NCBI GenBank assembly: GCA_029259175.1
Contig: JAPDJH010000018.1
Location: 5,747 to 69,746 of the forward strand
Direction of reading: 5' to 3'
Origin: Hadesarchaea archaeon
Lineage (GTDB): Archaea; Hadarchaeota; Hadarchaeia; Hadarchaeales; Hadarchaeaceae
Length of the DNA: 64,000 nucleotides
Both the position numbers and the translations under genes were made by a program. Positions 712 through 63,586 of the stretch are shown here, piece after piece (position 1 is the stretch's first letter; every line of letters starts with the position of its first letter). Below the pieces are notes generated by a model that searched no databases, had not been told where the DNA came from, and was given only the letters and a program-made list of their open reading frames with translations.

Positions 712-1991
712 CGCGTGTTCACCTCGCTCATTTTTTCGACCAATGACATCAGCTTCTTAACAGCATCCTCCACTCGATCCTCGGCCAACAGACCAAAAAG
801 ATCTCGAACGCTGACAAGTTCTATGCCCTGCACATCCTTCACGTATTCCTCCAGCAGCAACATTCCCTTCTCATCGATGGAGAGCTGTTTCTCTTTGAAC
901 TCCCTAAGTGACCGGAGTTTTTCCTCCAATCCGGGAGATACCAGAGCATCCTTGCTTATGGTCACCAGCGCCTTGTCTCGGAATTCCTCTTCTATCAGGC
1001 GCTCGTCAAAATCGGCTCTCGAGATCTCCTTGGCGAGAGTGCCCATCAGCCGGATTCGTATGATCGGGATCTTTTCCAAATTCTTCCGATGCCGAAGGAG
1101 AAGTTCCTGTATTTTACTGCGCACTTTGGTATACAATTCCTGCAAAGAAGCGTTCTCCACTTTCATCTCTTCATAAAAGAAATCTCTCGGGCTCTTCAAT
1201 TCTACAAACGTCCATCTCGGACGCCCACCCGTTTCCACCAAGTAAAACCCCTTGGGATTTCTTGCCTCGACCTCCAGCAGCTGGGTGCGCTCCGTGCTCC
1301 CAGGCATCAAAAGTGGTGCTCCGTGGGCTTCTGTTTCAGCACGATAGTGCACATGGCCGTTCAAGTAGAGATCGAATCCAGGGGGCAAATCCCCCACTTT
1401 GAGCATGGACTCCTCTTCCGTTTCCTTCGAAAAAACGAACTCCCCAATGGACTGGTGTAGAGCAAGCACGTTAAACGCCCCCGGCTCCGGCGTCGGATTC
1501 CACGTCCTGAGCTGGGCCAACACGTACTTCTCCGGCACGTAGCTGAAACCGTGAATTGCGACTCTCTCTCCCGATTTTTCAAAAACAATGCTTCCCGCCT
1601 CCAAATAGATGAGTTTTCCTGCCGATTCCAGTGCTTCCACCGGATTCTTCAACCCGCGCGTTCGTCGCTCGTGATTTCCACAAAGTGCGACCACCGGGGT
1701 GCCCTGCAAGGCCAAAGGAGGAATTGTCTCCACCGGTTTGAATTTCGTTTTAACTATTTTCAGCCGGTTTGTCCCCTCGGTCTTCGGTATGGAGAAAATC
1801 CGGAGGGCGCGATCCCATACTTCTAGTTTTGGAATACGGGTATCAAAGATATCACCTAATATAAGAATTAGATCTACATCCATTTCGAGGGCTTTACGAA
1901 TGGCCTCCTCCGCGTGATCAAACGAATCGTTTTCCCTTGGTGTTCCCCACTTGGCCCCGAGGTGGAAATCAGCCATTACCGCAATTCTCAT
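708..1991 (-). CDS. mre11: DNA repair nuclease Mre11 (calcineurin-like phosphoesterase)
   Basis: ORF 708..2009. The likely start is the ATG at 1991 (MRIAVMADFHLG..., an Mre11 phosphoesterase motif I). GDIFD, GNHE and GHVH motifs are present. It lies immediately upstream of rad50 with overlapping stop/start. Confidence 0.85.
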   Translation of the reverse strand: MRIAVMADFHLGAKWGTPRENDSFDHAEEAIRKALEMDVDLILILGDIFDTRIPKLEVWDRALRIFSIPKTEGTNRLKIVKTKFKPVETIPPLALQGTPVVALCGNHERRTRGLKNPVEALESAGKLIYLEAGSIVFEKSGERVAIHGFSYVPEKYVLAQLRTWNPTPEPGAFNVLALHQSIGEFVFSKETEEESMLKVGDLPPGFDLYLNGHVHYRAETEAHGAPLLMPGSTERTQLLEVEARNPKGFYLVETGGRPRWTFVELKSPRDFFYEEMKVENASLQELYTKVRSKIQELLLRHRKNLEKIPIIRIRLMGTLAKEISRADFDERLIEEEFRDKALVTISKDALVSPGLEEKLRSLREFKEKQLSIDEKGMLLLEEYVKDVQGIELVSVRDLFGLLAEDRVEDAVKKLMSLVEKMSEVNTR

Positions 1992-2066
1992 TTTTGTCAC
2001 CGCTACCATACATCTTCTTCAACTCATCTTCTTATAGCTGAAATGAACTTTTTTAATGGGGATGCC

Positions 2067-3281
2067 ATGCTCTGGACCGAGAAGTACGCGCCCAAGCGCT
2101 TATCCGAACTCGTTGGTCAAGACGCTGCCGTGCAGACTATGCGGAAATGGGTAGAAAGCTGGAAAAAAGGAAAGCCGTCCAAAAAGAGCTTGCTGTTATA
2201 TGGGCCTCCAGGCACGGGAAAAACAGCTGCCACCAGAGCTCTGGCAAACGAGACTGGGTGGCAACTAATAGAGATGAACGCCAGCGACAAGCGAACGATG
2301 AGCGCTCTCAGAAAAATAATAGGAGAGGCTTCGAAAACCGGAACGCTGTTGGAGGGGGTCCAAGGGAAAAAATTACTGGTGCTGGACGAGGCCGACAACA
2401 TTCACGGACGCGCTGATCACGGCGGCTATCAGGCTTTGAAAGAGATCATCGGCACCACTACCAACCCTGTAATTCTAATCGCCAACGACCGGTACTCCAT
2501 TCCCGCCGAGATCCAAGCCCAATGCGAGCTGGTAAATTTCCGGCGGCTCCGTCCCGATCAAATCGTCAAACACTTAGAACACATTGCGAAAAACGAAAAA
2601 ATCAAAGTGGATCGAAAAGCCTTAGAGATCATTGCCCGGCGTTCCGACGGAGATATGCGTTCCGCCATCGAGGACTTTCAGACACACGCTCTTGTGTTTC
2701 CACGTTTGACTGCAGAGCAAGTCCTGTTGTTTAAACGCGAACGTGAGAAAAACGTGTTCGATCTGTTGAGAGGGATCTTGTTCGCCAGCAGCGCCGATGT
2801 TGCGCGTTCTGTGCTCTGGTCAGTGGACATAGCTCCCGACGAAGCAATGGCCTGGATAGTGGAAAACGTGCCAAAAGCCATTAGGGATCCGAAAGCGCTG
2901 GCGGCCGTTTACAACACGCTCTCCAGAGCCGACATCTTCTACAGAAGAGCCAACGAGCGCCAGATTTACCGGCTCTGGTCCTACATGAGCGATCTCATGA
3001 GCGCGGGGGTGGCCGTCAAGAAGGGGAGCGAGGTGAAAGCAGCAAAATTCGAGCCTCCATCGTACCTGAAGCGATACTACCAAACAGCAAAAACCAGAAG
3101 AATGCTAAATTCTGTGGCGAGAAAAATCGCGATGGCGTGCCACACCTCTACTCACCGGGTAAAACAGGATATGATCCCTTTGCTTCCAATCTTGATCCAA
3201 AACAAGAAACTGCTCGAGAATCTGACCGCTAATCTGGAGTTAAGCGAGGAAGAGATCAACTTTCTCTCTTCTCTCCGGTGA
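2067..3281 (+). CDS. rfcL: Replication factor C large subunit
   Basis: MLWTEKYAPKRLSELVGQDAAVQTMRKWVESW...LLLYGPPGTGKTA (Walker A) and LVLDEADN (Walker B): an AAA+ clamp-loader signature. The internal ATG at 2067 matches the canonical N-terminus; the ORF track starts at 1914. Confidence 0.85.
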   Translation: MLWTEKYAPKRLSELVGQDAAVQTMRKWVESWKKGKPSKKSLLLYGPPGTGKTAATRALANETGWQLIEMNASDKRTMSALRKIIGEASKTGTLLEGVQGKKLLVLDEADNIHGRADHGGYQALKEIIGTTTNPVILIANDRYSIPAEIQAQCELVNFRRLRPDQIVKHLEHIAKNEKIKVDRKALEIIARRSDGDMRSAIEDFQTHALVFPRLTAEQVLLFKREREKNVFDLLRGILFASSADVARSVLWSVDIAPDEAMAWIVENVPKAIRDPKALAAVYNTLSRADIFYRRANERQIYRLWSYMSDLMSAGVAVKKGSEVKAAKFEPPSYLKRYYQTAKTRRMLNSVARKIAMACHTSTHRVKQDMIPLLPILIQNKKLLENLTANLELSEEEINFLSSLR

Positions 3282-4363
3282 GCGATGGAATGAGAATCCG
3301 GATCTCGAAAAAACTGGAATACGGCAAGCTTGTCACTCCGCTTCCCGACCGTCATGTCCCCGTCTACCGCTGGTTTCAAATGAAAGAATCTTTCTCGGGA
3401 GCTTTAGTCAAGATGTTGCTGGACTTGTGGGGAAGTCCTGACAAACCGCTCCTCGACCCGTTTTGCGGGGCTGGCACGACTTTGCTCGCATGCAAAGAAA
3501 TGGGCGTCAACGGAATCGGATTGGAAACACATCCGTTTTTGTTGTTTGTATCTAGGGCGAAGACTTGGAACTATGATGTTCCCAGCTTAGAAACGTACTT
3601 GTCCAAAGTCCTAGCCTCCCCCACCAAACGCACAAGTGGAGGTGTGCCTCCATTAGTCAAACGCGTATTTCCCTTGTCGATTCAGCGCGAAATCCTTGCT
3701 ATGAAGGAACCGATCAACGCCATCCCCAACGAAAAAATTCGGGATTTCCTAAAAATGGCGCTGCTCCGGACTGCGGTGCGATGTAGTTGGATGAGAAAAG
3801 ATGGTGCTGTGATCAAAACAGCTGCCCGAAAAATACCCGATTTCCGACACGCGCTAGAGTGTCTGGTCGAAGAGATGGTGAGAGATCTCATGAATTTCCC
3901 GCAGAATGAATCAGCAATTCAGCTAATCCGTGCCGACGCGCGCCACATCCCCCTCAAAGACAACAGCGTGGGAGGCGTTATTACTTCTCCACCGTACCTC
4001 TTCAAGTCGGAGTATTTGCGCGAATTCGTTGTTGAAGAATGGGTTGCAGAAGTCGAACACGCCAGCACCCCATCTGTCATCCACACGGAAGATGTCGAAA
4101 AGTATTTTTCCGACATGGAACGGGTGCTTAGCGAACTCTATCGGGTCTGTGTCCCTGGCGCCAAGCTATGTTTTGTCGTCTCCGATGGCGGAACTCGAAA
4201 GGGGGTGGTAGAAGTCGGTCCTACCTTGTGTGAGGTAGCTCACAATATCGGATTCAAAGCGAAGAAGATGGTTATCGTGAACGAGCGCTGGTGTACCACC
4301 CCTTCAAGAAAAAAAGTGGGAATTCTGCGCGAATCTCTGCTGTTTTGGGAAAAGCCCGCATGA
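3278..4363 (+). CDS. SAM-dependent methyltransferase: motif I (DPFCGAGTT) then motif IV-like (TSPPY), with a large insertion between them
   Basis: KPLLDPFCGAGTTLLA near the N-terminus and GGVITSPPY about 175 aa later. This is the Trm11 / N6-N4 amino-methyltransferase architecture. No THUMP domain and no adjacent nuclease. Confidence 0.6.
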   Translation: MSDGMRIRISKKLEYGKLVTPLPDRHVPVYRWFQMKESFSGALVKMLLDLWGSPDKPLLDPFCGAGTTLLACKEMGVNGIGLETHPFLLFVSRAKTWNYDVPSLETYLSKVLASPTKRTSGGVPPLVKRVFPLSIQREILAMKEPINAIPNEKIRDFLKMALLRTAVRCSWMRKDGAVIKTAARKIPDFRHALECLVEEMVRDLMNFPQNESAIQLIRADARHIPLKDNSVGGVITSPPYLFKSEYLREFVVEEWVAEVEHASTPSVIHTEDVEKYFSDMERVLSELYRVCVPGAKLCFVVSDGGTRKGVVEVGPTLCEVAHNIGFKAKKMVIVNERWCTTPSRKKVGILRESLLFWEKPA

Positions 4364-4390
4364 CTTAAATTTTCAACACAGAATACACAG

Positions 4391-4462
4391 ATGGATAGGA
4401 TGGCCAAGCGCAGGAAGAAAACAACTAGGAAGAAGAAAAAATGGAAAAAGAACAGACGATAG
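4391..4462 (+). CDS. 23-aa highly basic micro-ORF, eL41-like candidate
   Basis: ATG GAT AGG ATG GCC AAG CGC AGG AAG AAA ... TAG encodes MDRMAKRRKKTTRKKKKWKKNRR. Intergenic location between two co-oriented genes. Composition resembles ribosomal protein eL41. Confidence 0.3.
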   Translation: MDRMAKRRKKTTRKKKKWKKNRR

Positions 4463-4498
4463 ATTCAAAAATTTTCTATTCACAAGGTTGCGGATCAC

Positions 4499-5287
4499 AT
4501 GTCCTCCTTAGTATATCTACTGGGCCCTGCAGGCTGTGGAAAGAGTACCCTGACATCTGCACTTTCTGTCCTAATGCAGAGCAATGGTCTGAAAGTCGTC
4601 ACGGTGAACCTCGATCCCGGAGTTGAATGGCTCCCATACACTCCAGATATCGACATTCGAACACATGTCTCCCTCCGAGAGGTTATGAAAGAATTCAAGC
4701 TAGGACCTAATGGCGGACTGATAGTGGCCGTGGATCTAATGGCCGAACATCTTCCCAAACTCCGACAATTGATTGTGGAGTGGAATGCGGATTATGTTTT
4801 GGTTGACACGCCAGGCCAAATGGAATTGTTTGCCTTTCGGCGTACCGGACCAGCAGTAATCGAGGGATTGGGGGATGTGCAGAGGTCTTGTTTGCTGTTT
4901 TTGATAGACTCTTTCTTTGCAAAACAAGCCAGCTCATTCGTATCCATGCTGATGCTGGCCTCTTCAGTGTTGGCCCGTTTTCGTCTCCCACAGATAAATG
5001 TCCTGACCAAGATCGACAGGCTAACGGCCAACGAACTCCAGATGACCGCCGACTGGATGGAGCGCAAAGATTTGCTCTTGGACGCGATCCTGTCTGAACC
5101 GAACCCGTTAGACCGGGAAACGGCCATGGGAATGTTAGAAGTCGTAGAAAAAACGAGTCTGGCTGGGGAACTCGTTCCGATCTCGGCAACCGAAAACCGC
5201 GGATTGTTAGAGCTAGTTGGTGCAATAGAACGGGCACTCGCGAAAGAAACTGTGCTCGACCTAGGAGAGGAGGTCGAAAAGTATTGA
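4499..5287 (+). CDS. GPN-loop GTPase
   Basis: LLGPAGCGKSTL P-loop and a GPNGGL motif, the defining GPN loop of this family. Confidence 0.8.
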   Translation: MSSLVYLLGPAGCGKSTLTSALSVLMQSNGLKVVTVNLDPGVEWLPYTPDIDIRTHVSLREVMKEFKLGPNGGLIVAVDLMAEHLPKLRQLIVEWNADYVLVDTPGQMELFAFRRTGPAVIEGLGDVQRSCLLFLIDSFFAKQASSFVSMLMLASSVLARFRLPQINVLTKIDRLTANELQMTADWMERKDLLLDAILSEPNPLDRETAMGMLEVVEKTSLAGELVPISATENRGLLELVGAIERALAKETVLDLGEEVEKY

Positions 5288-6417
5288 CATCTCTTGAGAA
5301 GTTCCTCGGAACCATTCTTGGCGTGGCCTTGGGCGATGCGGTCGGAGCACCGTTTGAGGGTACGCCCGCGTCTCTAAGCAAGGAACTCGTAACCGAAAAA
5401 ATCGAAAATCTGCAAACGCTCACATATACGGACGACACCCAAATGACCCTCGACTTGGCTTCTTCTCTGAGCGCGCGTTCGGGTTTTGATCCGAATGACG
5501 TTGTCCAACGCTTCCTCACCAGCTACAATCCGGCTCGTCGCTATGGACAAACCACCTCGACCGTGCTCCAACTAATTAAAGACGGGACTGACTGGATCCA
5601 AGCATCCAAACAAGTGATGAATGGAGAAGGCTCCTACGGAAATGGGGCAGCTATGAGAATCGCGCCCGTTGCCCTGCTCTATCACCACGATAAAGAAAAG
5701 ATGCTGGAAATCGCAAAGGCATCGAGCGAGCTTACCCACGCACACCCCCTCGGGATCGAAGGGGCCATCATCCAAGCTGCCGCTCTAAGATTCGCAATTC
5801 TTACCTCTCCCACAGATTTTGACCCGGCAGAATTTCTGTCAGAGATAAAACAAGTGATAACTCAAGAGGTGTACGCGCAAAAAATAAACTCAATACACCA
5901 ACTGCTAGAAGAACCCATCGATCCCGTTACCATTCGGGAGAGACTTGGATGTGGAGGCGAGGCTTTCAACTCAGTTCCTACCGCCATCTACTGCTTCCTG
6001 ACCGATCCCACCGATTTTATTTCTAGCGTTAGCATAGCCGTGTCACTCGGAGGAGACACTGATACTATCGCCTCTATGACTGGCGCGCTCGTTGGCGCCC
6101 TGACTGGCAAACCCGCCCTGCCCGAAGCTTGGTTAGAAAAACTAGAAAACAGAGAGACGATCGAGCGTGTTGCCCAGTCGCTCTTTTTTACCCATGTCAA
6201 AACGGTTCTAGGACATCGATGCGAGATGTGCCTCTCTCAAGAGGGGATCAAAGCTTACAAAATAGATCCCGCTGGGCCCGATAATGTAGACAACTACATA
6301 TTGCTCTGCGCCCGATGCAAGCGAGAGAGTGAGGAGGAAGAGAAAGAGTTCTTCGCCAAGCCAAGAAAACATGGGAAGTATCGAGCGGTTTACCGGAAGG
6401 CCCACCGGAGGGCCTAA
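5284..6417 (+). CDS. ADP-ribosylglycohydrolase fused to a C-terminal degenerate HNH-type zinc ribbon
   Basis: N-terminal ILGVALGDAVGAPFEG and downstream Asp/Thr-rich metal-binding motifs (GGDTDT) typical of the ADP-ribosylglycohydrolase fold. C-terminal tail HRCEMC...AYKIDP...DNVDNYILLCARCK has the CxxC..(HH)IxP..N..LLCxxC(H) layout of HNH nucleases, but HH is replaced by YK and the terminal H by K. Confidence 0.7.
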   Translation: MTSLEKFLGTILGVALGDAVGAPFEGTPASLSKELVTEKIENLQTLTYTDDTQMTLDLASSLSARSGFDPNDVVQRFLTSYNPARRYGQTTSTVLQLIKDGTDWIQASKQVMNGEGSYGNGAAMRIAPVALLYHHDKEKMLEIAKASSELTHAHPLGIEGAIIQAAALRFAILTSPTDFDPAEFLSEIKQVITQEVYAQKINSIHQLLEEPIDPVTIRERLGCGGEAFNSVPTAIYCFLTDPTDFISSVSIAVSLGGDTDTIASMTGALVGALTGKPALPEAWLEKLENRETIERVAQSLFFTHVKTVLGHRCEMCLSQEGIKAYKIDPAGPDNVDNYILLCARCKRESEEEEKEFFAKPRKHGKYRAVYRKAHRRA

Positions 6418-6981
6418 ATGGTCTCCGAGGAGATGCGAACTCGCATAAGCAAGTGCTTGGCCTATCTTCTCCGTCACGACAAGAATCTTCCAAGAACAGA
6501 AGATGGATGGGTTCCAATCCCAGAGGTGCTAAAACTCCTGCAAAAGCGATGGCAGTGGATCAACTCTGCACTCCTCCAAGAGATTGTTGAGAAAGACAAA
6601 AAGCAGAGATACGAGATCCGCAACAACATGATACGCGCCAGGTACGGGCACAGCGTCCCTGTAAATTTACATCTTCCGGCTGCCGACGTGGACGTCCTCT
6701 ATCATGGGACCACCCCCAATGCCGCTATGCAAATTCTAAAAGAAGGGCTCAAACCCATGGGGCGCACCATGGTGCATCTCTCTACCACTCCCAGCGATGC
6801 GATGGCGGTGGGGAAGCGAAGAACCAAAACTCCGACCGTACTCAAAATAGATGCCAAAAAAGCGCAATCCATGGGAATATCGTTTTTCAAGGCGTCTGAA
6901 AGCGTTTATTTAGCTTCTTCTGTGCCTCCCGAGTGTATAAGCATATGGGGTGAAGGGAATGAAAGCCTCGAAGGAGTGTAA
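6418..6981 (+). CDS. kptA: RNA 2'-phosphotransferase Tpt1/KptA (NAD-dependent)
   Basis: RISKCLAYLLRHDKNLPRTEDGWVPIPEVL and a central YHGT motif are characteristic of Tpt1/KptA. Typical length of about 185 aa. Confidence 0.8.
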   Translation: MVSEEMRTRISKCLAYLLRHDKNLPRTEDGWVPIPEVLKLLQKRWQWINSALLQEIVEKDKKQRYEIRNNMIRARYGHSVPVNLHLPAADVDVLYHGTTPNAAMQILKEGLKPMGRTMVHLSTTPSDAMAVGKRRTKTPTVLKIDAKKAQSMGISFFKASESVYLASSVPPECISIWGEGNESLEGV

Positions 6982-7791
6982 GGAGTGTCTCTCGCAGTTA
7001 GCAGACCAAGTGGCAAAACTCTCGGCACAACAGATCTCGTTGCGCAGAAAAATTCGCAGACATATGGAGAGGGCGCTTATCCGGATAACCAAACATACAG
7101 TGCCAACCGACATATCTAATGAGCTCCACCATATCGCCAAGGTACTATCATCAAATCTCGATCCCTACAAAGAAATCAAACAAAAAGAGATGACGGTTGC
7201 AAAAGAGATTTACACTAAGCTGAAGATCGGAGACACTCTGCGGAGTCGAGTGGAGATCGCCGCTTTCGGCAATGCAATCGACTATTTTGTAGATCCAAAT
7301 GAACTCCACCAAATATTTAACTCACCTGTCAAGTTCGCTAAGGACGACATAGAGGAGCTGGCTAGAAAGCTTCGAAAAACCAGGCGCATTCTCTATCTGC
7401 CCGACAACGCAGGAGAAGTCTTTTTCGATATCCCGTTGGTGGATTACCTGAGAGAACGCGCTGACATTTTTTATGCTGTAAAAGCGGAGCCCATTCAGAA
7501 CGATTTCTCCATAGAAGAGCTAGGATTTTTAGACGGCATCAAAATCCCGGCGACAATCATAAAAGGACCTCCAACGGTTGGAGTTTATTTGAGTCAGGCC
7601 CCATAGAGTTCAGAATGGCCTTCGATGTTTCAGACCTGATAATCGCAAAGGGGATGGCAAACTACGAAACACTTTCAGAACTGGCCGGTGAAGACCGCGT
7701 CTTCTACATTCTGAGAGCAAAATGCAAACCGGTTGCCAAGTCGTTGGGGGTCAGAGTGGGCGACTACATAGCAACATTCTTAACTCGCTGA
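6950..7791 (+). pseudogene. DUF89 (ARMT1-like damage-control phosphatase) interrupted by a frameshift
   Basis: Frame +2 ORF 6950..7606 contains LYLPDNAGEVFFDIPL, the DUF89 metal-binding motif. The C-terminal remainder (MAFDVSDLIIAKGMANYETLSELAGEDRVFYILRAKCKPVAKSLGVRVGDYIATFLTR) continues in frame +1 to 7791. No stop separates the frames around 7585-7615. Confidence 0.55.
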
Positions 7792-19136: not shown

Positions 19137-20313
19137 GGTTCTCTTCGGAACTCTTGGCCCGCAGATACTTTCGCCCACCCCTCTCTCCCCGAAACCCTCA
19201 TAATTGGATAGAACGAACCTCGGGCGAATGCGTGTCGTCAAGACCATCCGGGCGGAGCTCTGGGCCCTCACCAAGCGCAAGCTTGAGTGCTTGCTCGATC
19301 TTGAGAGCGAGTGGAGGCGCGCCCTTGAGCTCAAACGCACGTACCGGGAGCTCAGGGAGTCGACGCGCCTGCCCTCCTACTACTGCAGGGCCCTGGCGTG
19401 GAAGGTCCGCGGGCGGCAGTCCCCCATCCTGCTCGACCGGGACTCCTTCGAGCTCAAGCCCACCTCCAACCGCCTAGCCCGCTACTTCATCAGCATTCCC
19501 ACGCCCCGCGGGAGGGTGTGGTGCCCCCTCAGGCTCTGGCGCGAGCACGAGCGGTTGCTCGAGTCGGGAGTCAGGATTAGGGACTCGAAGCTGGTCGTGC
19601 GGAAGGGGAGGTTCTTTCTCCACCTCACGGTTGAAAAGAAAATCACGCTCATCCCTCGACCCAACGTGGTCGCGGTCGACCTCGGAGAGCGCTTCCTCGC
19701 GGCGTCCGTGGCGCTTCGCGGGGGAGCAGTGGTCTCAGCGGTCCTGCTCGGGAAGGAGGCGAGAGGGGTGAGGCGGCACCACGCGTGGCTGCGCAGGCGC
19801 CTGGGGGAGCGGAAGCTCCTGCGCGTCATCAGGCGAATCGGGCAGCGGGAGCGGCGCGCGGTCGACCAGATCTGCCACCGGGTCGCGAAGCGCGTGGTCG
19901 AGTTCGCAGTCCGCCACGAGGCCGTCATCGTGATCGGGGATCTGAAGGGGCTGCGCGAGCGCTGCAGGGGGAAGGGGAAGCGCCTGAATCGCATCGTTGG
20001 CTCCATGCCCTACCACCGGCTCAGGCGCTACATCGAGCACAAAGCGGCTTGGTTTGGGATCCCGGTGTACATAGTGAGCGAGGCGCACACGAGCTCCCGC
20101 TGCCACCGCTGTGGGGCCGAGGGATCGAGGCCCAGCCAGGGGCTCTTCAGGTGCAGGGCATGCGGGCTCGAGTACAACGCGGACCTGAACGGTGCCGCAA
20201 ACCTCGGAAAGAGGTTCCTGGAGCAGCGCTCCGGGAACGGGGCCGTGTGGGTTCCGGCCCTAAAGGCGGCCTAGAGCCGCCAACTTCGGAGGTCAAGGCT
20301 TCCGAAGAGAACC
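19137..20313 (+). mobile_element. TnpB-only insertion element bounded by perfect 14-bp terminal inverted repeats and a 9-bp target-site duplication
   Basis: Left repeat GGTTCTCTTCGGAA (19137-19150) is the exact reverse complement of right repeat TTCCGAAGAGAACC (20300-20313). TAACTAGCC sits immediately outside both ends (19128-19136 and 20314-20322). The interior is about 65% GC against about 52% for the flanks. A subterminal hairpin CTTCGGA-ggtcaaggc-TTCCGAAG lies at 20282-20307. Confidence 0.8.
19204..20274 (+). CDS. tnpB: TnpB (IS200/IS605 OrfB-family RuvC-like RNA-guided nuclease)
   Basis: 356 aa. RuvC-I (VVAVDLGE), RuvC-II (VIVIGDLKGL) and a C-terminal zinc finger with RuvC-III (CHRCGAEGSRPSQGLFRCRACGLEYNADLNGAANL). 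No tnpA in the element. Confidence 0.85.
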   Translation: MDRTNLGRMRVVKTIRAELWALTKRKLECLLDLESEWRRALELKRTYRELRESTRLPSYYCRALAWKVRGRQSPILLDRDSFELKPTSNRLARYFISIPTPRGRVWCPLRLWREHERLLESGVRIRDSKLVVRKGRFFLHLTVEKKITLIPRPNVVAVDLGERFLAASVALRGGAVVSAVLLGKEARGVRRHHAWLRRRLGERKLLRVIRRIGQRERRAVDQICHRVAKRVVEFAVRHEAVIVIGDLKGLRERCRGKGKRLNRIVGSMPYHRLRRYIEHKAAWFGIPVYIVSEAHTSSRCHRCGAEGSRPSQGLFRCRACGLEYNADLNGAANLGKRFLEQRSGNGAVWVPALKAA

Positions 20314-35883: not shown

Positions 35884-36138
35884 TTGCGAACACTCAAAAA
35901 CACAAATTTAAGGAAAGTGTTCCAAGTAATGATGGGAAAACACATGGCCGAATCCCTAACTCTTCAAGATCTCCAAGAAGAGATAATAAAGCTCAAAGCG
36001 GAAATTGAGAAGATAAAACGTGACTTGATTGAAAATCTCGAGCTATCTGATTGGGCAAAGAAACGCTTGAAGAGATATGAAAAAGGGAAGGAGCGGATCG
36101 TGGAGCATGAAGAAGTAAGGAGAGAAATCCTCAAATGA
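35884..36138 (+). CDS. Putative antitoxin (small helical, Lys/Glu-rich) upstream of a RelE-like gene
   Basis: The likely start is the ATG at 35944 (MAESLTLQDLQEEIIKLKAEIEKIKRDL...). Its stop TGA overlaps the ATG of the downstream toxin (ATGA at 36135-36138). Confidence 0.5.
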   Translation: MRTLKNTNLRKVFQVMMGKHMAESLTLQDLQEEIIKLKAEIEKIKRDLIENLELSDWAKKRLKRYEKGKERIVEHEEVRREILK

Positions 36139-36391
36139 GCTTTATCATCAAGTGGACCTCCGGTGCCAGAAAGACATTTTGAGCCTGGACAAAGAAGTCG
36201 CTAGGCGGATTCTGAGAAAAATTGAATCGATAACCGATTCCCCTTTTCGTTTTCTTGAACCGCTTCGGGGCCACCCGTACTACAAGCTCAGAGTCGGAGA
36301 CTACAGGGTGATTTTTGACGTCAACAGGGAGAAGAGGATTCTGATCGTAGTGGTGGTAGGACATCGAAAGAAGATTTATCGAGGACTTTAA
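36135..36391 (+). pseudogene. relE: RelE/ParE-family toxin with a possible N-terminal frameshift (or GTG start at 36152)
   Basis: The ATG at 36135 gives MSFIIKWTSGARKTF*. The +2 frame from the GTG at 36152 continues VDLRCQKDILSLDKEVARRILRKIESITDSPF...GDYRVIFDV...VVVGHRKKIYR. Joined, these give a canonical RelE N-terminus. A single-nucleotide indel lies near 36170. Confidence 0.55.
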
Positions 36392-36446
36392 TCTCGGATC
36401 ACTATCTAAACGCGCCGCTTGGATAGATCACATTAAATTAACAGTT

Positions 36447-36463
36447 CGAGTGGTGGGGCCGCC
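36447..36463 (-). repeat. Direct repeat of the tRNA-Trp 3' terminus (att core)
   Basis: cgagtggtggggccgcc matches cgaatggtggggccgcc at 41154-41170 (16/17). That stretch is the acceptor stem plus CCA of the tRNA at 41158-41291. Confidence 0.65.
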
Positions 36464-36511
36464 TACCATCTGGAATGCTCAACTGTCTCCCCGCAATCAG
36501 TCGGGCCAAGG

Positions 36512-36829
36512 ATGGAAGAAGAGGTCATCGAGGGCATCAGGGACATTCTGGAACGGCTGGCGAGGAACGAGTCCTTCAACCGGCTGGTACGGGAGTACTT
36601 CCGCATCTTGGCCCAGCCAGCGCTGAGGCGCGAACTCAAGGCCTCCAGAGCGTTCGAGGGATTCTCGGACGTCACGTGGTTCGCCCACCGGCTGGGCAGG
36701 TGGCGGACCAAGGGGGCGCGGGAGTGCCTGTCGCTACTCAGGCGGATCCACGAGAGCGTGAGGCGATTCGGCGTCGTCACGACGATGGATGCGCTGATGG
36801 AGGTGATGAGAAAGACAGAGCTGAGATAA
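36512..36829 (+). CDS. Hypothetical helical protein in a GC-rich block
   Basis: 105 aa with a regular helical-looking sequence. Local GC is above 60%, unlike the surroundings. No recognisable motif. Confidence 0.3.
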   Translation: MEEEVIEGIRDILERLARNESFNRLVREYFRILAQPALRRELKASRAFEGFSDVTWFAHRLGRWRTKGARECLSLLRRIHESVRRFGVVTTMDALMEVMRKTELR

Positions 36830-36867
36830 GCGCTGTCAATTTATTACCTAACGCACAATATGAGAAT

Positions 36868-37680
36868 TTGGTGAAGTATGTGAAAGAGAAAATTAGTGGA
36901 CTTTTGAGAAAGTTTGAGAGCATAAAAGCAAACGTTTGGCAGGTTTACGGGACATTGGAAGAACTTGGAAAATTGCGAATCAGAGCCCAACAATCTTTGG
37001 ATAGACACTATCTCATGGACGAGATAGAAAAACTGGAAAAAGCAAAAGTAAAAGAAACCCAGATGATCTTGGAGGAATACCATAGTACCTCTTCAGATGT
37101 TTACAGTCTTCTCAACATGTCTCTTTCTTATTTCTCCCCTCCTAAAACAACAGAGGAGGCAAAGGGGATATTGCGTCGAATCGCGATAGAATGTGATGCC
37201 CTAATAGGTGCCCTAAATGTGTTAATTACGCCGCTCTCGCCTGAAGAGGTTGACCGACTTAATCAATTACGTTCCGAGGTCAAAAAACTATCCAGCAAAC
37301 TTGAGATAGGCTATGAGAAAAACTTGAATGAGGCAATAAACGAGTATGAGAAAGGACATTATTTGGCATCTGCGCTTATCACAGGCAGAGTAATCATCTA
37401 CATTCTAGACCAAGTTGAGGGGGGAACTGAAGAAGAGAAGATTAAATTTCTGCAAGATCACAACGTGATTCCTAGAGGGAGAAAAGATATTAAGGAGTTT
37501 ATAATGAAAGCCAGCCGAAAGGCGCGTCATTTCTTTGCTCATGATATAAAAATTTTTGCCACGGCTTCCGATGCTTTGAGCCTCCTAGGTGATTGTGTAA
37601 AGCTAGTGGAGATACTGGCTAAGTTAAAAAACTCTTCTCAAAAAACAAGCCTGCAATATCGTCACATGTTTAAGAGATAA
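36868..37680 (+). CDS. Hypothetical coiled-coil protein; C-terminus reminiscent of R-M-associated helper domains
   Basis: AT-rich gene starting at a TTG/GTG at 36868-36873. The upstream in-frame extension to 36475 is GC-rich junk. C-terminal KARHFFAHDIKIFATASDALSLL. Immediately upstream of the methyltransferase. Confidence 0.4.
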   Translation: MVKYVKEKISGLLRKFESIKANVWQVYGTLEELGKLRIRAQQSLDRHYLMDEIEKLEKAKVKETQMILEEYHSTSSDVYSLLNMSLSYFSPPKTTEEAKGILRRIAIECDALIGALNVLITPLSPEEVDRLNQLRSEVKKLSSKLEIGYEKNLNEAINEYEKGHYLASALITGRVIIYILDQVEGGTEEEKIKFLQDHNVIPRGRKDIKEFIMKASRKARHFFAHDIKIFATASDALSLLGDCVKLVEILAKLKNSSQKTSLQYRHMFKR

Positions 37681-37693
37681 AAGTGAAAAGAGT

Positions 37694-38704
37694 TTGGACA
37701 TGACAGCAAACAAATTACATTATGAGTGTAAGCATGGCGTGAAGATCTATAACAGTGATGTGCTAGATGTCTACGAAGAGTGGGAGAGCCCAGATGTGAT
37801 AATATCGGATGGACCGTATGGTTTGAATGCTTTCTATGGTGATTGCAAGGTACCAGATGAACTTCCAGCTTGGTATGAACCCCATATAAAAGTTTGGTCT
37901 GAAAAAGCTAGGCCGGGCGCTACTCTATGGTTTTGGAATAGTGAAATAGGATGGGCGTTAGTACATCCTGTTCTAGTGAAGCATGGTTGGACTTATGTTC
38001 GCTTTAATGTCTGGGATAAGAGTATAGCACACGTAGCTGGAAACACCAACACAAAAAAATTGAGGGAGTTCCCCTGCGTCACAGAAGCATGTGTTCAGTA
38101 TGTAAAGGAGGCAAAAATAGGAAATAAAACGCTTAAGGAATGGCTAAGGAGCGAATGGGAAAGAACTGGACTTCCACTCTATGAAGCTAATAAGGCGGCG
38201 GGTGTAGCCAACGCTGCAACTAGAAAGTGGTTGACTAAAGATCATCTTTGGTATACTCCACCACCAGAACAGTTTGAAAAGTTAGTAGAATACGCTAACG
38301 CTCATGGTAGGTCTACAGGAAGACCATATTTTTCGATAGACGGCAAGAAGCCAATTACAAAAGAAGAATATGCGAGATTGTTGCCTAAATTCCATTGTAA
38401 AGTGGGAATAACCAACGTCTGGAAAGAGCCACCACTTCATGGTCCTGAGAGGATAAAAATAAAAAAAGGAGGAAAGTCTGCACATCTAAATCAAAAACCA
38501 TTAAAGCTTATGAGACTCATTATTGAAGCCTCTTCAGATAGAGGCGATGTAATTTGGGAACCATTTGGTGGCCTATGTTCGGCCACTGTGGCTGCCCATC
38601 AATTAGGTCGTAAATGTTATGCTGCTGAGATAGAAAAAGAATTTTTCGAAATGGCTATTAATCGTCTAAAATGTATATGTTCGGAGGGGTCTTTGCGTGT
38701 CTGA
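37694..38704 (+). CDS. DNA methyltransferase, beta-class order (motif IV-like at the N-terminus, motif I at the C-terminus)
   Basis: N-terminal VIISDGPYG, a DPPY-like catalytic motif with Pro-to-Gly substitution. C-terminal VIWEPFGGLCSATVAAHQLGRKCYAAEIE, the FxGxG SAM-binding motif. An 8-nt overlap with the downstream nuclease gene. Confidence 0.6.
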   Translation: MDMTANKLHYECKHGVKIYNSDVLDVYEEWESPDVIISDGPYGLNAFYGDCKVPDELPAWYEPHIKVWSEKARPGATLWFWNSEIGWALVHPVLVKHGWTYVRFNVWDKSIAHVAGNTNTKKLREFPCVTEACVQYVKEAKIGNKTLKEWLRSEWERTGLPLYEANKAAGVANAATRKWLTKDHLWYTPPPEQFEKLVEYANAHGRSTGRPYFSIDGKKPITKEEYARLLPKFHCKVGITNVWKEPPLHGPERIKIKKGGKSAHLNQKPLKLMRLIIEASSDRGDVIWEPFGGLCSATVAAHQLGRKCYAAEIEKEFFEMAINRLKCICSEGSLRV

Positions 38705-39506
38705 GAAAGAGCCCCAACTTAGGGAACCGTCCAAAGAATGGCCCCACTACGAGTTGTGGATGAGAACCAGAAATTTGCTAAAAGAATTGCCTACGTATTT
38801 TAAAAGCACATTGAATATAACATCTGCCGTTAATGTAACTGAAATATATGCCTTCGGCACAGCTCTTAGCTATACGATTGAGGAAGAGGTTGTGAACACT
38901 CTCAACAAGGAAAAAGAACTGCTAGATCCTGATGGAAAATATTGTGAATACTCCTTTACTAGACAGGCACAATCATTCCCCGATGTGTTATTTCTAAATT
39001 CAGAAAAAGGTGACATAATAATGGGAATAGAGCTAAAATCGTGGTATCTCTTGGCGAAAGAGGGTGAACCGAGTTTTCGTTATAAAGTCACGCCTAGCGC
39101 GTGCGCCTTACAAGACTTGTTAGTTGTGGTACCTTGGGCCCTATCCAACGTGGTAACCGGGAATCCTATAGTTTTTGAACCATTCGTAATATCTGCTAGA
39201 TATGCGGCGGAATATCGAAATTATTGGTGGAAGCACTTGAGAAAGGCAGAGGGCAACACGGATATTTCCTCGCCCGACGGAGTCAGTTCTTATCCTTCTA
39301 GCCGTGAAAGGATAGACGATGAACCTGCTTATGATCCTGGTAGAAACTTTGGAAGATTAGCAAGGACAGAAATTATGGATAAATGGGTAAAGAGATGTAA
39401 AAAGGAAAAACTACTCGGAATAGAGATAGAAAAATGGATTGAATTCTTCAAAACGGGTAAAATCAGACATAAGGAAATTTGTGAAAAACGGCTGAAGTCA
39501 TCATAG
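38697..39506 (+). CDS. PD-(D/E)XK restriction endonuclease candidate
   Basis: FPDVLFLNSEKGDIIMGIELKSWY carries PD...(E)LK. Translationally coupled to the methyltransferase. AT-rich. Confidence 0.55.
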   Translation: MSEKEPQLREPSKEWPHYELWMRTRNLLKELPTYFKSTLNITSAVNVTEIYAFGTALSYTIEEEVVNTLNKEKELLDPDGKYCEYSFTRQAQSFPDVLFLNSEKGDIIMGIELKSWYLLAKEGEPSFRYKVTPSACALQDLLVVVPWALSNVVTGNPIVFEPFVISARYAAEYRNYWWKHLRKAEGNTDISSPDGVSSYPSSRERIDDEPAYDPGRNFGRLARTEIMDKWVKRCKKEKLLGIEIEKWIEFFKTGKIRHKEICEKRLKSS

Positions 39507-39515
39507 CACCTGCTC

Positions 39516-40961
39516 TTAGGGGCCCCCTGTTTCAGTCTCCTTTGTCCAACATTGTACTTTCATGACAATTAGGACAAGAATTATGCTAGCGATTGAGAGG
39601 ATAGATATCGAAGGACCAATTATGAAACCAATCCCACCATAAAAAAATATGAAAAATAAGCCGATCAACCCGGATGTACTCACCACGCCGATCATATTAC
39701 GGAACTGTCTATTTTCCATAAATTGTATCCCGCAGATACAACATCTAATTCCTCTTTCGGCAAAAAATATCAAAGACATCATAACAAAGATTGCCCAAAT
39801 ATTTTTGTCCAAGTTTTGTAGAAGAGCCAAAATTATATAAAGACCAGAAGTGATGGTTGCAACATAAATAAAAGTGAGAATGCCTAGAAGAGCGGAAGAT
39901 ATAGATTTTGATGTAAGTTTATACTGAAAAATTTGCAAGATTGCGCGCTTTGCTGTTTCCTTTTCTTTTGGGAAGAAAATTGATAAAACCACATAAAAGA
40001 GAAGTAAAAATACAAACCAAACCAAAATGTTAGTGATGAGGACCTTGAAAGACGATAAGAAAGTAAACTCGCTTAGAAAAACATTTTCGTAACTCGTTTT
40101 ACCTGCGGTTACTTTAACTACCTTCTCGGCTCGATATCCAATCATTCCCCCCGATTCAATGATTATTTTGTATTCGCCTTCACCCAGATTGAAAACGCAC
40201 GCACCGTTCTCATCAGTCAAGAATGGTGCCGAACTCCGCGTTCTCACCACACGTACTCGTGCGTTTGGCACAGGTTCGTTTTCCTTTCTAACACTGATGA
40301 TTAACTTGCCGGTTCTCTTTACGTACCGAGTGGTAACATCATGTGCTGTGCCAGAGTCGTCAACGGCGTATACGAAAAAGAGTTGTTCTCCTCCTCCATT
40401 TTCATTCTCTGGACGCTCGTAAAATGCAGGATCGTTAATAATGCCTCTCTTCCCAGTTGCTGGATTAGTTTTGCTTGGGTCAACATGTATCCAATCTCCA
40501 TTAATTTTTACCTCAGCCCAAGCATGATCCAGACCCAAATTGTACACAACCCGGGCATTATCTATGCCTGCTGTTTTTGCCAATTCTACGAACAGCCTTG
40601 CAAACTCTTCACATGCGCCGTGTTTGAAGAACATTATCCATTGTGGATGCATAAGTCGAAGGTACGTGACAGGGATCCTATCTAATAGAAAATATAGCGG
40701 CGGTATGGAGCTATGCGGACGCTTGTAAATGATTTTCCCCTCAAAATTTCTATCCTCCCACTCAATAATCGCATTGATAATGGACAAATGATTCGAATTC
40801 TTGCTACCGATTTCAGTCCCGACTTTTTGTATTTCCGCCTCTCCCAATATTTGGACGACAAAGTAGGGAAGCCAGAAGGTAGATAGAACGGTTAGTAATA
40901 GAAGCGCTGTCGCTAGATAGGTCTTGAACTTTTTCCACTTTCTTTCTGTGTTTGATGGCAT
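39516..40961 (-). CDS. Membrane-anchored transglutaminase-like cysteine protease-fold protein
   Basis: GACEEFARLFVELAKTAGI...DHAWAEV...GDWIHVDPS is a Cys-His-Asp transglutaminase-like core. An N-terminal TM, a beta-sandwich region, then more than six TM helices. Confidence 0.6.
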   Translation of the reverse strand: MPSNTERKWKKFKTYLATALLLLTVLSTFWLPYFVVQILGEAEIQKVGTEIGSKNSNHLSIINAIIEWEDRNFEGKIIYKRPHSSIPPLYFLLDRIPVTYLRLMHPQWIMFFKHGACEEFARLFVELAKTAGIDNARVVYNLGLDHAWAEVKINGDWIHVDPSKTNPATGKRGIINDPAFYERPENENGGGEQLFFVYAVDDSGTAHDVTTRYVKRTGKLIISVRKENEPVPNARVRVVRTRSSAPFLTDENGACVFNLGEGEYKIIIESGGMIGYRAEKVVKVTAGKTSYENVFLSEFTFLSSFKVLITNILVWFVFLLLFYVVLSIFFPKEKETAKRAILQIFQYKLTSKSISSALLGILTFIYVATITSGLYIILALLQNLDKNIWAIFVMMSLIFFAERGIRCCICGIQFMENRQFRNMIGVVSTSGLIGLFFIFFYGGIGFIIGPSISILSIASIILVLIVMKVQCWTKETETGGP

Positions 40962-61999: not shown

Positions 62000-63061
62000 T
62001 CAGCGCGTGGTGCGGCATTCGCCCACCACGGGGATCCGCCGGCGGCACTTAGGACAGCGCTGGTTCTCTAGCCTGACCCTGATCACGTCGAAGCCGAAGC
62101 GCTCAATCAATAGGGTGCCACAGTCCGGGCAGTAAGTGTTCTCGTAGGGGTGGCCCGGAACATTTCCCACATAGACAAAATGAATGCCTCTCGAAACAGC
62201 GAGTTTCCGGGCACGCTCGAGGACTCCAACCGGAGTGGGCGGGGCCGCAAACCGATAGGCGGGGTAGTAGGCGGTGAAGTGCAACGGGGTTTCGGCCCCA
62301 GCGTAGCGCAAGTGGGATTCGACCACATCCTCGAGCTGTTCGGGGCGGTCGTTGACCCCGGGGATGACCAGATTCACCACCTCGACGTGCATGCCCAGCC
62401 GCCTCGCCTCGCGCACGTTGCGCCACACCGCGCGCACGTCGGCTCCGCAGTACCGCCGCACCGCCTCCGCGTCGCCTTTCACGTCTACGTTCAGTGCGTC
62501 CAGCCCGGCGTCTCGGAGAGCGCGCAGAGCCTCGAGCGTCATGTAGCCGTTGCTCACGAAGGTGTTCTGGAAACCGCGCCGGTGGGCCAGTCTGAAGACG
62601 TCCAAGGCCCATTCGAAAAGCAAAGTCGGCTCGTTGAAGGAAACGCTCGTGGAGGAACACCCTGCGTCTTCCACCATCTGAACGAACCGCTCCGGGCTCA
62701 CGTACTCCCCGAGTGACGGATCGGGGGCCCGCTTGGAGATGTGCCAGTTCTGACACCAAGGGCACTCGAAAGTGCACGAAAAGCTGCCGATGGTGAGTGA
62801 GCGGCTCCCCGGCCAGAAGTGGAAAAATGGCTTCTTCTCGATGGGATTGGCCGAGATCCCGCTCGAGAGGCCGTACTGCAGGGTGAAGAGGGTGCCCCCG
62901 GAATTCCGCCTAGTCTTGCAGAAACCCACTTGGCCTTCCGGGATCACGCAACGCCGTTCGCAGAGCTCGCAGCGCACTTTTGATCCTTCCAATCTGCGGT
63001 AGAGAAGAGCCTCGCGAACGTAGGGTGGGGGTGATGTCCCGCTCGCGGTTGGCATACACAT
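62000..63061 (-). CDS. Radical SAM activating-enzyme-like protein (PflA/AmmeMemoRadiSam-type)
   Basis: CTFECPWCQNW (CxxxCxxC) plus an upstream CELCERRC cluster. GC-rich gene. Confidence 0.6.
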   Translation of the reverse strand: MCMPTASGTSPPPYVREALLYRRLEGSKVRCELCERRCVIPEGQVGFCKTRRNSGGTLFTLQYGLSSGISANPIEKKPFFHFWPGSRSLTIGSFSCTFECPWCQNWHISKRAPDPSLGEYVSPERFVQMVEDAGCSSTSVSFNEPTLLFEWALDVFRLAHRRGFQNTFVSNGYMTLEALRALRDAGLDALNVDVKGDAEAVRRYCGADVRAVWRNVREARRLGMHVEVVNLVIPGVNDRPEQLEDVVESHLRYAGAETPLHFTAYYPAYRFAAPPTPVGVLERARKLAVSRGIHFVYVGNVPGHPYENTYCPDCGTLLIERFGFDVIRVRLENQRCPKCRRRIPVVGECRTTR

Positions 63062-63067
63062 TCCTTT

Positions 63068-63586
63068 CTACTTTCTGACCAGCGCCTCCCGCCACGCTCG
63101 AACCATCGGTTCGCTTAGATCGCACAGGACGACGCGGGTGAGAGAACTGGCAGTCGGCTCGAACTCGCGGATTGCCCGCACCATAGCTGCCGCGGCCTGG
63201 TCTGCCGGAACCCCTCCAACCCCTGTGCCCATTCCGGGGATGACTATGCTCTCTGCTCCCAGTTCATTGGCACATCGGAGGGCAGCGAGTGTGGCCTTGT
63301 AGACCTTTTCGGCCGTGGTCGCCATTGCGGGCCGTTCCATCGTGGGGGCGTGGACGACCCAGCGGGCTTTCAGCCGCCCTGCCGTCGTTGCCACGGCGCG
63401 TCCCACTTCAAGCGGAGCGTGCTTGCGCGCCTCGCGCTCGATTTGCTCGCCGCCCGCACGCTTGAGAGCTCCGGCCGCTCCCCCACCCATCCACAGCTGC
63501 GAGTTGGCGGGGTTCACGATTGCATCCGCTTCTTGCTGGGTCAGGTCTCCCAGCCTCACCTCGACTTCGAGTTTACCTACTCGCAT
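63068..63586 (-). CDS. Macro-domain protein (ADP-ribose binding/hydrolase)
   Basis: ADAIVNPANSQLWMGGGAAGALKRAGG...IPGMGTGVGG: the Af1521-type macro-domain signature. Confidence 0.8.
   Translation of the reverse strand: MRVGKLEVEVRLGDLTQQEADAIVNPANSQLWMGGGAAGALKRAGGEQIEREARKHAPLEVGRAVATTAGRLKARWVVHAPTMERPAMATTAEKVYKATLAALRCANELGAESIVIPGMGTGVGGVPADQAAAAMVRAIREFEPTASSLTRVVLCDLSEPMVRAWREALVRK

Follow-up and report, generated by a model that had tools for sequence, protein, structure and literature searches.

An ARH3-type ADP-ribosylglycohydrolase with an HNH-derived tail and its operon with Tpt1/KptA in Hadarchaeota

We analyzed a stretch of 64,000 nucleotides from the genome of Hadesarchaea archaeon (assembly GCA_029259175.1, contig JAPDJH010000018.1, positions 5,747 to 69,746 of the forward strand), which is called the window below. 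The window encodes an ADP-ribosylglycohydrolase (ARH) whose core is predicted to be an active, Mg-dependent hydrolase of the ARH3 type. The core is followed by a C-terminal tail. As judged by profile comparison, the tail derives from an HNH domain and keeps its ββα zinc fold, but throughout the family the histidines that act as general base and metal ligand are gone; it ends with a basic peptide. The gene directly downstream encodes Tpt1/KptA, an RNA 2'-phosphotransferase. This operon suggests, without proving it, that the hydrolase removes ADP-ribose from the ends of RNA or DNA. As far as the searched literature shows, neither the fusion of an ARH with an HNH tail nor the ARH-KptA operon has been described, while the proposed chemistry is not new.

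The hydrolase core is complete. The ADP-ribosylglycohydrolase profile PF03747 matches it with 231.3 bits (the cutoff is 26.2), and positions 1-286 of the 287 profile positions are covered. An earlier note on this DNA, made from the letters alone, had read a complete ADP-ribosylglycohydrolase core here. The near full-length match and the intact metal motifs bear this out, and the subgroup can be specified as ARH3-like. The best match among PDB sequences is vertebrate ARH3 (2qty, E=2.5e-45), followed by MJ1187 (6e-23) and DraG (about 1e-17), and the scores of the protein with the NCBIfam equivalog models of Tri1 and DraG are far under the cutoffs. The AlphaFold2 model of the full-length hydrolase has a predicted local distance difference test score (pLDDT) of 92 and a predicted template modelling score (pTM) of 0.90. 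Foldseek with this model finds ARH3 at 34% identity with a template modelling score of 0.87 normalised to ARH3. The metal-site motifs TDDT and GGDTDT (residues D50-D51-T52 and D258/D260/T261) align with those of ARH3, in which the reference residues are D77/D78 in TDDT and D314/D316/T317 in GGDxDT according to PDB entry titles and PMC6582358. All of these residues of the window protein are unchanged across 58 homologues. Because the motifs align with ARH3 and stay invariant, we read the core as a probably active enzyme of this type.

Vertebrate ARH3 (ADPRHL2/ADPRS) thus has the same fold and the same motifs as the window hydrolase. The two proteins differ in that only the window hydrolase, an archaeal protein, carries the 68-residue C-terminal extension composed of the HNH-derived zinc domain and the basic peptide. 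Such an extension was found in no solved ARH structure in the Foldseek comparison. The extra C-terminal residues, approximately 75 in number, are present in about 21 protein clusters, and the named ones all belong to Hadarchaeota. Bathyarchaeota and Chloroflexota supply the next-best ARH homologues (43-48% identity), which end at about residue 305 and have no tail. The fusion of ARH with the tail is therefore confined to Hadarchaeota.

The sequence of the window tail is HRCEMCLSQEGIKAYKIDPAGPDNVDNYILLCARCKRE. Residues C313, C316, C342, C345, N337, and L340 are invariant in the alignment of 21 tail homologues. The pair Y325-K326 stands at the place of the HNH “HH”, and K346 at the place of the histidine of CxxC-H. 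The earlier note had described an inactivated HNH tail (CxxC, YK for HH, N, LLCxxC-K for CxxC-H). This can be read exactly so from the sequence, and it holds for the family as a whole: among the 21 tails, at least 90% have K or R at position 25, most have one of these two residues at position 45, and position 24 varies.

The relation of the tail to HNH domains was established by profile search. The match of the tail to PF01844 scores 16-17 bits, below the gathering threshold of 21.4; taken singly, 19 of the 21 tails match this model, all below the threshold at the E-values obtained. An exhaustive search of 1.84 billion representative proteins with the tail profile (E≤1e-3) gave 64 matches. Sixty of them were re-scanned, and 37 proved to be bona fide PF01844 proteins (best 1.3e-24) with the consensus CxxC..L..HH...NL..LCxxCH. 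Tail positions 24-25 correspond to the HNH “HH” in the profile alignments, and position 45 to the histidine of “CxxCH”; the true HNH matches keep HH and CH at the very positions aligned with the substitutions of the tail. A word-indexed homology search with the same profile added just three further fragments, so it took the exhaustive search to connect the tail with HNH proteins and with the HAD hydrolases described below. Against PDB sequences, the tail profile gives only sub-significant HNH matches (best E 0.089). The AlphaFold2 model of the tail alone has the β-β-α order with a pLDDT of 72, and Foldseek ranks HNH families at the top without significance, in agreement with the homology found by profile search. 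In the full-length model (pTM 0.90) the domain of residues 310-358 has a pLDDT of about 95, which suggests that it is docked on the hydrolase core and not loosely tethered.

Like HNH endonucleases (PF01844; for example, the HNH of phage GVE2, McrA, Cap5, and the HNH domains of Cas9 and Cascade), the tail has a ββα core, a CxxC...CxxC zinc site, a structural Asn, and an “N-x-I-L-L-C” motif. It differs from them in that K or R stands in place of the general-base His, the residue at the first His varies, and the last His has given way to K, R or another residue. The tail also scores under the Pfam threshold, is attached to hydrolases, and is predicted to have no nuclease role.

The zinc domain is followed by the basic peptide, in which K362, G364, K365, Y366, R367, Y370, and R371 (KxGKYRxxYR) are invariant in the 21 homologues. 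The last 19 residues have a pLDDT of 38 and are predicted to be disordered. The computed net charge of the peptide is about +9, while that of the core is -16. Both this peptide and the HAD fusions of the tail go beyond what had been observed in the earlier note.

A genome scan and the profile search revealed the same zinc module and a KPRKHGKYRAVYRR peptide at the C-terminus of a HAD-IA hydrolase (the nearest model is TIGR02253) in other Hadarchaeota (Table 1). In one of these proteins, P0125, the module is of full length and the CxxCH histidine is retained. In the HAD fusions of high-GC lineages the β-hairpin is shortened and the peptide is the same. At L008 and L009, an upstream ORF (open reading frame) of 243 codons without a Pfam match overlaps the HAD gene. 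At these two loci and at L020, none of the neighbours matches a Pfam family, and both a GPN GTPase gene and KptA are missing from the adjacent positions. A collection with one genome per species contains one match per genome, to the ARH-tail or to the HAD-tail fusion. The search pattern was strict, and this distribution is a weak hint that the two fusions are mutually exclusive across genomes.

Since the module is found on two unrelated hydrolases, we read it as a targeting device and not as a catalytic one. In our view the tail is a Hadarchaeota-specific, portable module for targeting. Because of its HNH origin and positive charge, we infer that it most likely targets nucleic acid. A dead HNH domain with a basic peptide would then be a clean example of a nuclease fold that is recycled for targeting and shuffled between two hydrolase families.

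Coordinates of the genes and domains are given in Table 1.

Table 1. Coordinates of the studied genes and domains. Positions without a locus name refer to the window.
Feature	Location	Strand	Evidence
RFC (replication factor C) large subunit gene	1914-3281	co-oriented row	ORF list
DNA methyltransferase gene, type-II-like, orphan	3278-4363	+	PF01555 E=3e-16; PADLOC MTase_II E=8e-42
GPN-loop GTPase gene	4499-5287	+	PF03029 E=2.1e-60
Tail-bearing ARH hydrolase gene (377 aa, TTG start, TAA stop)	5284-6417	+	PF03747 E=2.5e-68, residues 9-281
ARH3-type core, residues 1-309; its long helix (290-308) connects to the tail	5284-6210	+	PF03747
HNH-derived ββα zinc domain, residues 310-358	6211-6357	+	profile and structure comparison
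Basic C-terminal peptide, residues 359-377, PRKHGKYRAVYRKAHRRA region, and TAA stop	6358-6417	+	alignment, charge, pLDDT
Tpt1/KptA RNA 2'-phosphotransferase gene (187 aa)	6418-6981	+	PF01885 E=1.7e-36
DUF89/ARMT1-like “damage-control” phosphatase gene	6950-7606	+	PF01937 E=8.1e-25; NF040824 E=1.6e-24
Stand-alone macro-domain protein gene	63068-63586	-	PF01661 E=1.4e-30; nearest NCBIfam model “ADP-ribose-binding protein”
HAD-tail fusion	L007 427-1662		
HAD-tail fusion	L008 7215-8120		
HAD-tail fusion	L009 5131-6039		
HAD-tail fusion P0125	L020 5001-5954		
HAD-tail fusion, fragment	P0123		

According to the ORF list, the six genes from the RFC large subunit (RFC-L) to DUF89 (1914-7606) are tightly packed in one orientation, and the GC content at the locus is normal. 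The GPN-loop GTPase and the orphan methyltransferase, which the earlier note had placed upstream of the hydrolase in the same orientation, are both present there. The TTG start of the hydrolase gene sits inside the stop of the GPN gene (TATTGA) and overlaps its TGA by 4 nt; a GGAGG sequence is found about 11 nt upstream of this start. The gene of the 377-aa protein is called identically on a 258-kb ENA metagenome contig of identical sequence. The gap of 1 nt between the hydrolase stop and the KptA start reported previously has to be corrected: the KptA ATG follows the TAA immediately, with 0 intergenic nt. The 3' end of KptA overlaps the DUF89 gene by 32 nt. In this assembly the DUF89 gene is split into parts of 215-218 and 58 aa (the second part lies at about 7615-7791), and it is split in L023 as well. 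An intact gene (277 aa) is present in L011, L019, and L022; the last is a further assembly of this population. Either a frameshift variant or an assembly error accounts for the split. For the type-II-like methyltransferase, which is syntenic with RFC-L across the subclade, we saw no restriction enzyme partner. We regard this methyltransferase as context only and make no claim that it belongs to a functional unit.

The Tpt1/KptA protein matches PF01885 with 126.4 bits (cutoff 26). Its score with the NCBIfam equivalog NF002013 is 188.6 with a cutoff of 231, a shortfall expected for a divergent lineage. The best PDB match is Probable RNA 2'-phosphotransferase 8tfi (E=1.1e-36). Residues R19-H20, R73 (in IRARYGHS), and R116 (in R..VHLS) agree exactly with the aligned motifs in 8tfi and 9ld4. 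These residues probably form the Arg-His-Arg-Arg active-site tetrad. Judging by these motifs, the active site looks intact and the protein appears to be an ordinary Tpt1 orthologue. The tetrad of Tpt1 was defined in PMC6333775, where it is also stated that archaea have Tpt1 though their tRNA ligation leaves no 2'-phosphate. Archaeal KptA erases the 2'-phosphate of tRNA U47 that is written by ArkI (PMC9095486, 2022; see also PMC12678800). Hence Tpt1, which the earlier note proposed as a “writer” of ADP-ribose marks, need not be one, as the archaeal enzyme was shown to be an eraser of a 2'-phosphate (PMC9095486). At the same time, Tpt1 of A. pernix, P. horikoshii, and A. fulgidus caps 5'-phosphate ends with ADP-ribose, and the ADP-ribose that TRPT1 attaches to 5'-phosphorylated RNA and DNA is taken off in vitro by human ARH3 but not by ARH1 or ARH2 (PMC6582358).

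We propose, tentatively and with somewhat less than even confidence, that the anchored ARH3-type hydrolase removes phosphate-linked ADP-ribose and serves as an eraser or proofreader for Tpt1, with which it is co-expressed in one subclade. The identities of the domains, the intact active-site motifs, the fold of the tail, the loss of the HNH residues, and the gene order with its distribution are what the sequences and models show; we infer that the tail binds nucleic acid, which substrate is cleaved, and any tie in function to Tpt1. To our knowledge, capping of 5'-phosphates with ADP-ribose is known in vitro only. The dead-HNH/basic module would hold the hydrolase on RNA (possibly tRNA) or on DNA ends. 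The hydrolase would then cleave ADP-ribose joined via C1'' to a terminal or internal nucleic-acid phosphate. The substrates could be 5'-phospho-ADP-ribose caps made by Tpt1 or stalled 2'-phospho-ADP-ribosyl intermediates, and the hydrolysis would restore phosphorylated RNA or DNA. In the clade of the window, the hydrolase would be translationally coupled to GPN upstream and to Tpt1/KptA and DUF89 downstream. On this reading the hydrolase is an eraser or proofreader of Tpt1 chemistry and not half of a toxin-antitoxin pair.

Gene neighbourhoods were compared for 11 distinct loci with the tail-bearing hydrolase found by tblastn or gene calls (the window, L001-L006, L011, L013/14, L015, and L019). 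KptA is directly downstream in six of them (the window, L011, L019, L002, L003, and L015), with junctions from +5 to -11 nt. It is not in the flank of L004-L006 and L013/14, and at L001 the hydrolase gene is followed after 22 nt by a DUF89 gene without KptA. A DUF89 gene comes after KptA in the window, L011, and L019. In the six divergent genomes, KptA abuts or overlaps the hydrolase gene at a protein identity of 44-60%, and the persistence of such tight junctions at this divergence argues for co-translation. The tail does resemble HNH domains and the adjacency does extend beyond one genome, two points on which the earlier note had made its proposal depend. Its pairing of the hydrolase with Tpt1 stands in part: the coupling is tight where it occurs, but it is not general, being limited to one subclade in which the whole block is syntenic.

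A number of observations weigh against our proposal. A GPN GTPase gene is directly upstream of the hydrolase in all 11 loci, usually with a stop/start overlap, and is the only neighbour conserved in all of them. This GTPase has no known link to ADP-ribose, yet it is the invariant neighbour. The GPN gene is preceded by PolD DP2 in L013/14 and by RFC-L and the DNA methyltransferase in the clade of the window. The neighbour-joining tree of the hydrolase has two clades, with KptA adjacent in 6/7 loci of one clade and 0/4 of the other, so the adjacency corresponds to roughly a single evolutionary event, with about one gain and one loss. Synteny in the first clade extends over the entire block RFC-L/methyltransferase/GPN/ARH/KptA/DUF89, together with TruA and MoaA, which are encoded on the opposite strand. 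Since whole-block synteny includes unrelated housekeeping genes, the adjacency is weak evidence of a specific tie. In three other Hadarchaeia contigs KptA is free-standing in varied contexts, and the closest ARH genes without the tail, those of Bathyarchaeota, lie near neither KptA nor GPN. The substrates of ARH3 enzymes also include Ser-ADP-ribose, poly-ADP-ribose, and O-acetyl-ADP-ribose. In addition, the role of archaeal KptA on the 2'-phosphate of tRNA Up47 is sufficient without a hydrolase partner (PMC9095486).

These observations lead to the explanation that competes best with ours. The hydrolase may act on protein or small-molecule ADP-ribose (O-linked protein ADP-ribose, O-acetyl-ADP-ribose) like canonical ARH3, with its tail docked on a protein or on the chromatin or replication machinery, and KptA may be next to it by inherited synteny. 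We consider this somewhat unlikely. The universal neighbour is indeed the GPN GTPase and not KptA, the locus lies amid replication and repair genes (RFC-L, Mre11/Rad50, and PolD DP2 in L013), and the syntenic block has KptA next to the hydrolase in a single subclade. The disordered conserved peptide resembles a short linear docking motif and could equally serve for docking on a protein. Against it, the approximately 45 ORFs of the window that were scanned include neither a protein-modifying ADP-ribosyltransferase nor a sirtuin. Inherited synteny also has to be reconciled with KptA junctions that stay tight, at 0 to -11 nt, at just 44-60% protein identity, and docking on a protein with the fact that HNH-derived folds and basic tails of +9 typically bind nucleic acid. 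If synteny alone accounts for KptA, the hydrolase is a lineage-specific domain fusion of modest interest.

Another explanation, which we find improbable, is clearance of Tpt1 by-products: the hydrolase and the DUF89 phosphatase would return ADP-ribose-phosphate derivatives to ADP-ribose, and the tail would keep the hydrolase near RNA. This explanation agrees with the gene order ARH-KptA-DUF89 found in the window, L011, and L019, where the junctions overlap, and with the fact that the tail of sister lineages sits on a phosphatase-type HAD enzyme. Erasure of Up47 by archaeal KptA yields Appr>p (ADP-ribose cyclic phosphate; PMC9095486), and the phosphate-C1'' bond cut by ARH3 on RNA ends would be the same as in ADP-ribose-1''-phosphate, if we extrapolate from PMC6582358. 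But we saw neither a 2H phosphodiesterase nor any other cyclic phosphodiesterase among the genes of the operon, and an enzyme of soluble metabolites has no obvious need for a tail that targets macromolecules. The hydrolase also persists in five loci without adjacent KptA. The known Appr-1''-p phosphatases are macro domains, according to the searched passages of the survey PMC9503650, and the one of this genome is unlinked to the operon.

A conflict system, i.e., a DarT/DarG-like toxin-antitoxin or defence module with Tpt1 as the toxin and the hydrolase as the antidote, or a tail that is a working nuclease, is hardly credible: for all the conceptual parallel of a transferase paired with a hydrolase and the orphan DNA methyltransferase nearby, PADLOC is silent on the hydrolase, KptA, and DUF89, the synteny with housekeeping genes is stable across a class at normal GC, KptA appears to be an ordinary Tpt1 orthologue, five of the 11 loci have the hydrolase without adjacent KptA, and the HNH general-base and metal-ligand residues are gone in nearly all of the 21 homologues. 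We rejected the defence or toxin-antitoxin module on the housekeeping context and the absent PADLOC matches, and the still-active nuclease on the missing catalytic residues. The remaining probability belongs to explanations other than those considered here.

The eraser/proofreader reading has close relatives among known systems. TRPT1/Tpt1/KptA with ARH3 or MacroD (Munnur et al. 2019, PMC6582358) involves the same two enzyme families as the window pair. There the enzymes are genetically unlinked and ARH3 has no nucleic-acid-binding module, whereas here a predicted operon exists in one archaeal subclade and the hydrolase has a candidate nucleic-acid anchor. The ArkI/KptA system of U47 (Ohira et al. 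2022, PMC9095486) shares the KptA family with the window and provides a physiological substrate of KptA in thermophilic archaea; unlike the window operon, it has no hydrolase partner. In DarT/DarG a transferase and a hydrolase for nucleic-acid ADP-ribose are likewise encoded side by side. The folds are those of the DarT ADP-ribosyltransferase and a macro domain in DarT/DarG, and those of Tpt1 and ARH in the window. The window pair also lacks both a mobile or defence setting and a match in PADLOC, and its adjacency is not obligatory. Thus the parallel with DarT/DarG drawn previously is conceptual and does not extend to a conflict system.

The fusion and pairing had been called uncharacterised as well. 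This agrees with our searches for the fusion and the operon, but not for the chemistry, as the reversal of TRPT1 marks by ARH3 has been published (PMC6582358). The searched passages of the survey PMC9503650 contain no ARG-KptA operon and no ARG-HNH fusion (ARG denotes the ADP-ribosylglycohydrolase there); in them the partners given for KptA are 2H, Macro, and NADAR, and ARG domains appear in different settings. A full-text literature search combining the three features gave nothing relevant.

An operon of Tpt1 and an ARH3-type eraser with an anchor of nucleic-acid type gives a handle on the question whether archaeal nucleic-acid ADP-ribosylation is physiological. The role of Tpt1/KptA in organisms without 2'-phosphate splice junctions is a long-standing puzzle, to which one answer in archaea is the erasure of tRNA Up47. 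A wider claim, of which we are doubtful, is that the locus represents the first natural genetic coupling of Tpt1/KptA with an ARH3-type hydrolase that has its own anchor, that phosphate-linked ADP-ribosylation in archaea is real and reversed, and that the module delivers end-healing hydrolases. If this is true, RNA/DNA-end ADP-ribosylation or stalled Tpt1 intermediates occur in archaeal cells and are actively reversed. Hadarchaeota would then have evolved the “dead-HNH plus basic peptide” to direct either hydrolase, the ADP-ribosylhydrolase or the HAD phosphatase, to one shared nucleic-acid substrate.

A Pfam scan of the approximately 45 ORFs of the window found no sirtuin, Nudix, 2H, RtcB, or ArkI-like kinase. 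The only other gene related to NAD or ADP-ribose is that of the distant macro-domain protein. It exists at the place named in the earlier note and is unlinked to the ARH/KptA operon, being 56 kb off and on the minus strand. This gene is directly upstream of a radical-SAM gene (62000-63061) on the same strand. The ORF at 19204-20274 on the plus strand has a Cas12f1-like/TnpB TNB domain (PF07282, E=1.1e-19) and is probably an IS200/IS605-type TnpB. An island of low GC content (0.40-0.45 versus about 0.51 elsewhere) at approximately 36000-40000 encodes a second N6_N4 DNA methylase (37694-38704) between two ORFs without a Pfam match (36475-37680 and 38697-39506), and may be a restriction-modification or mobile island.

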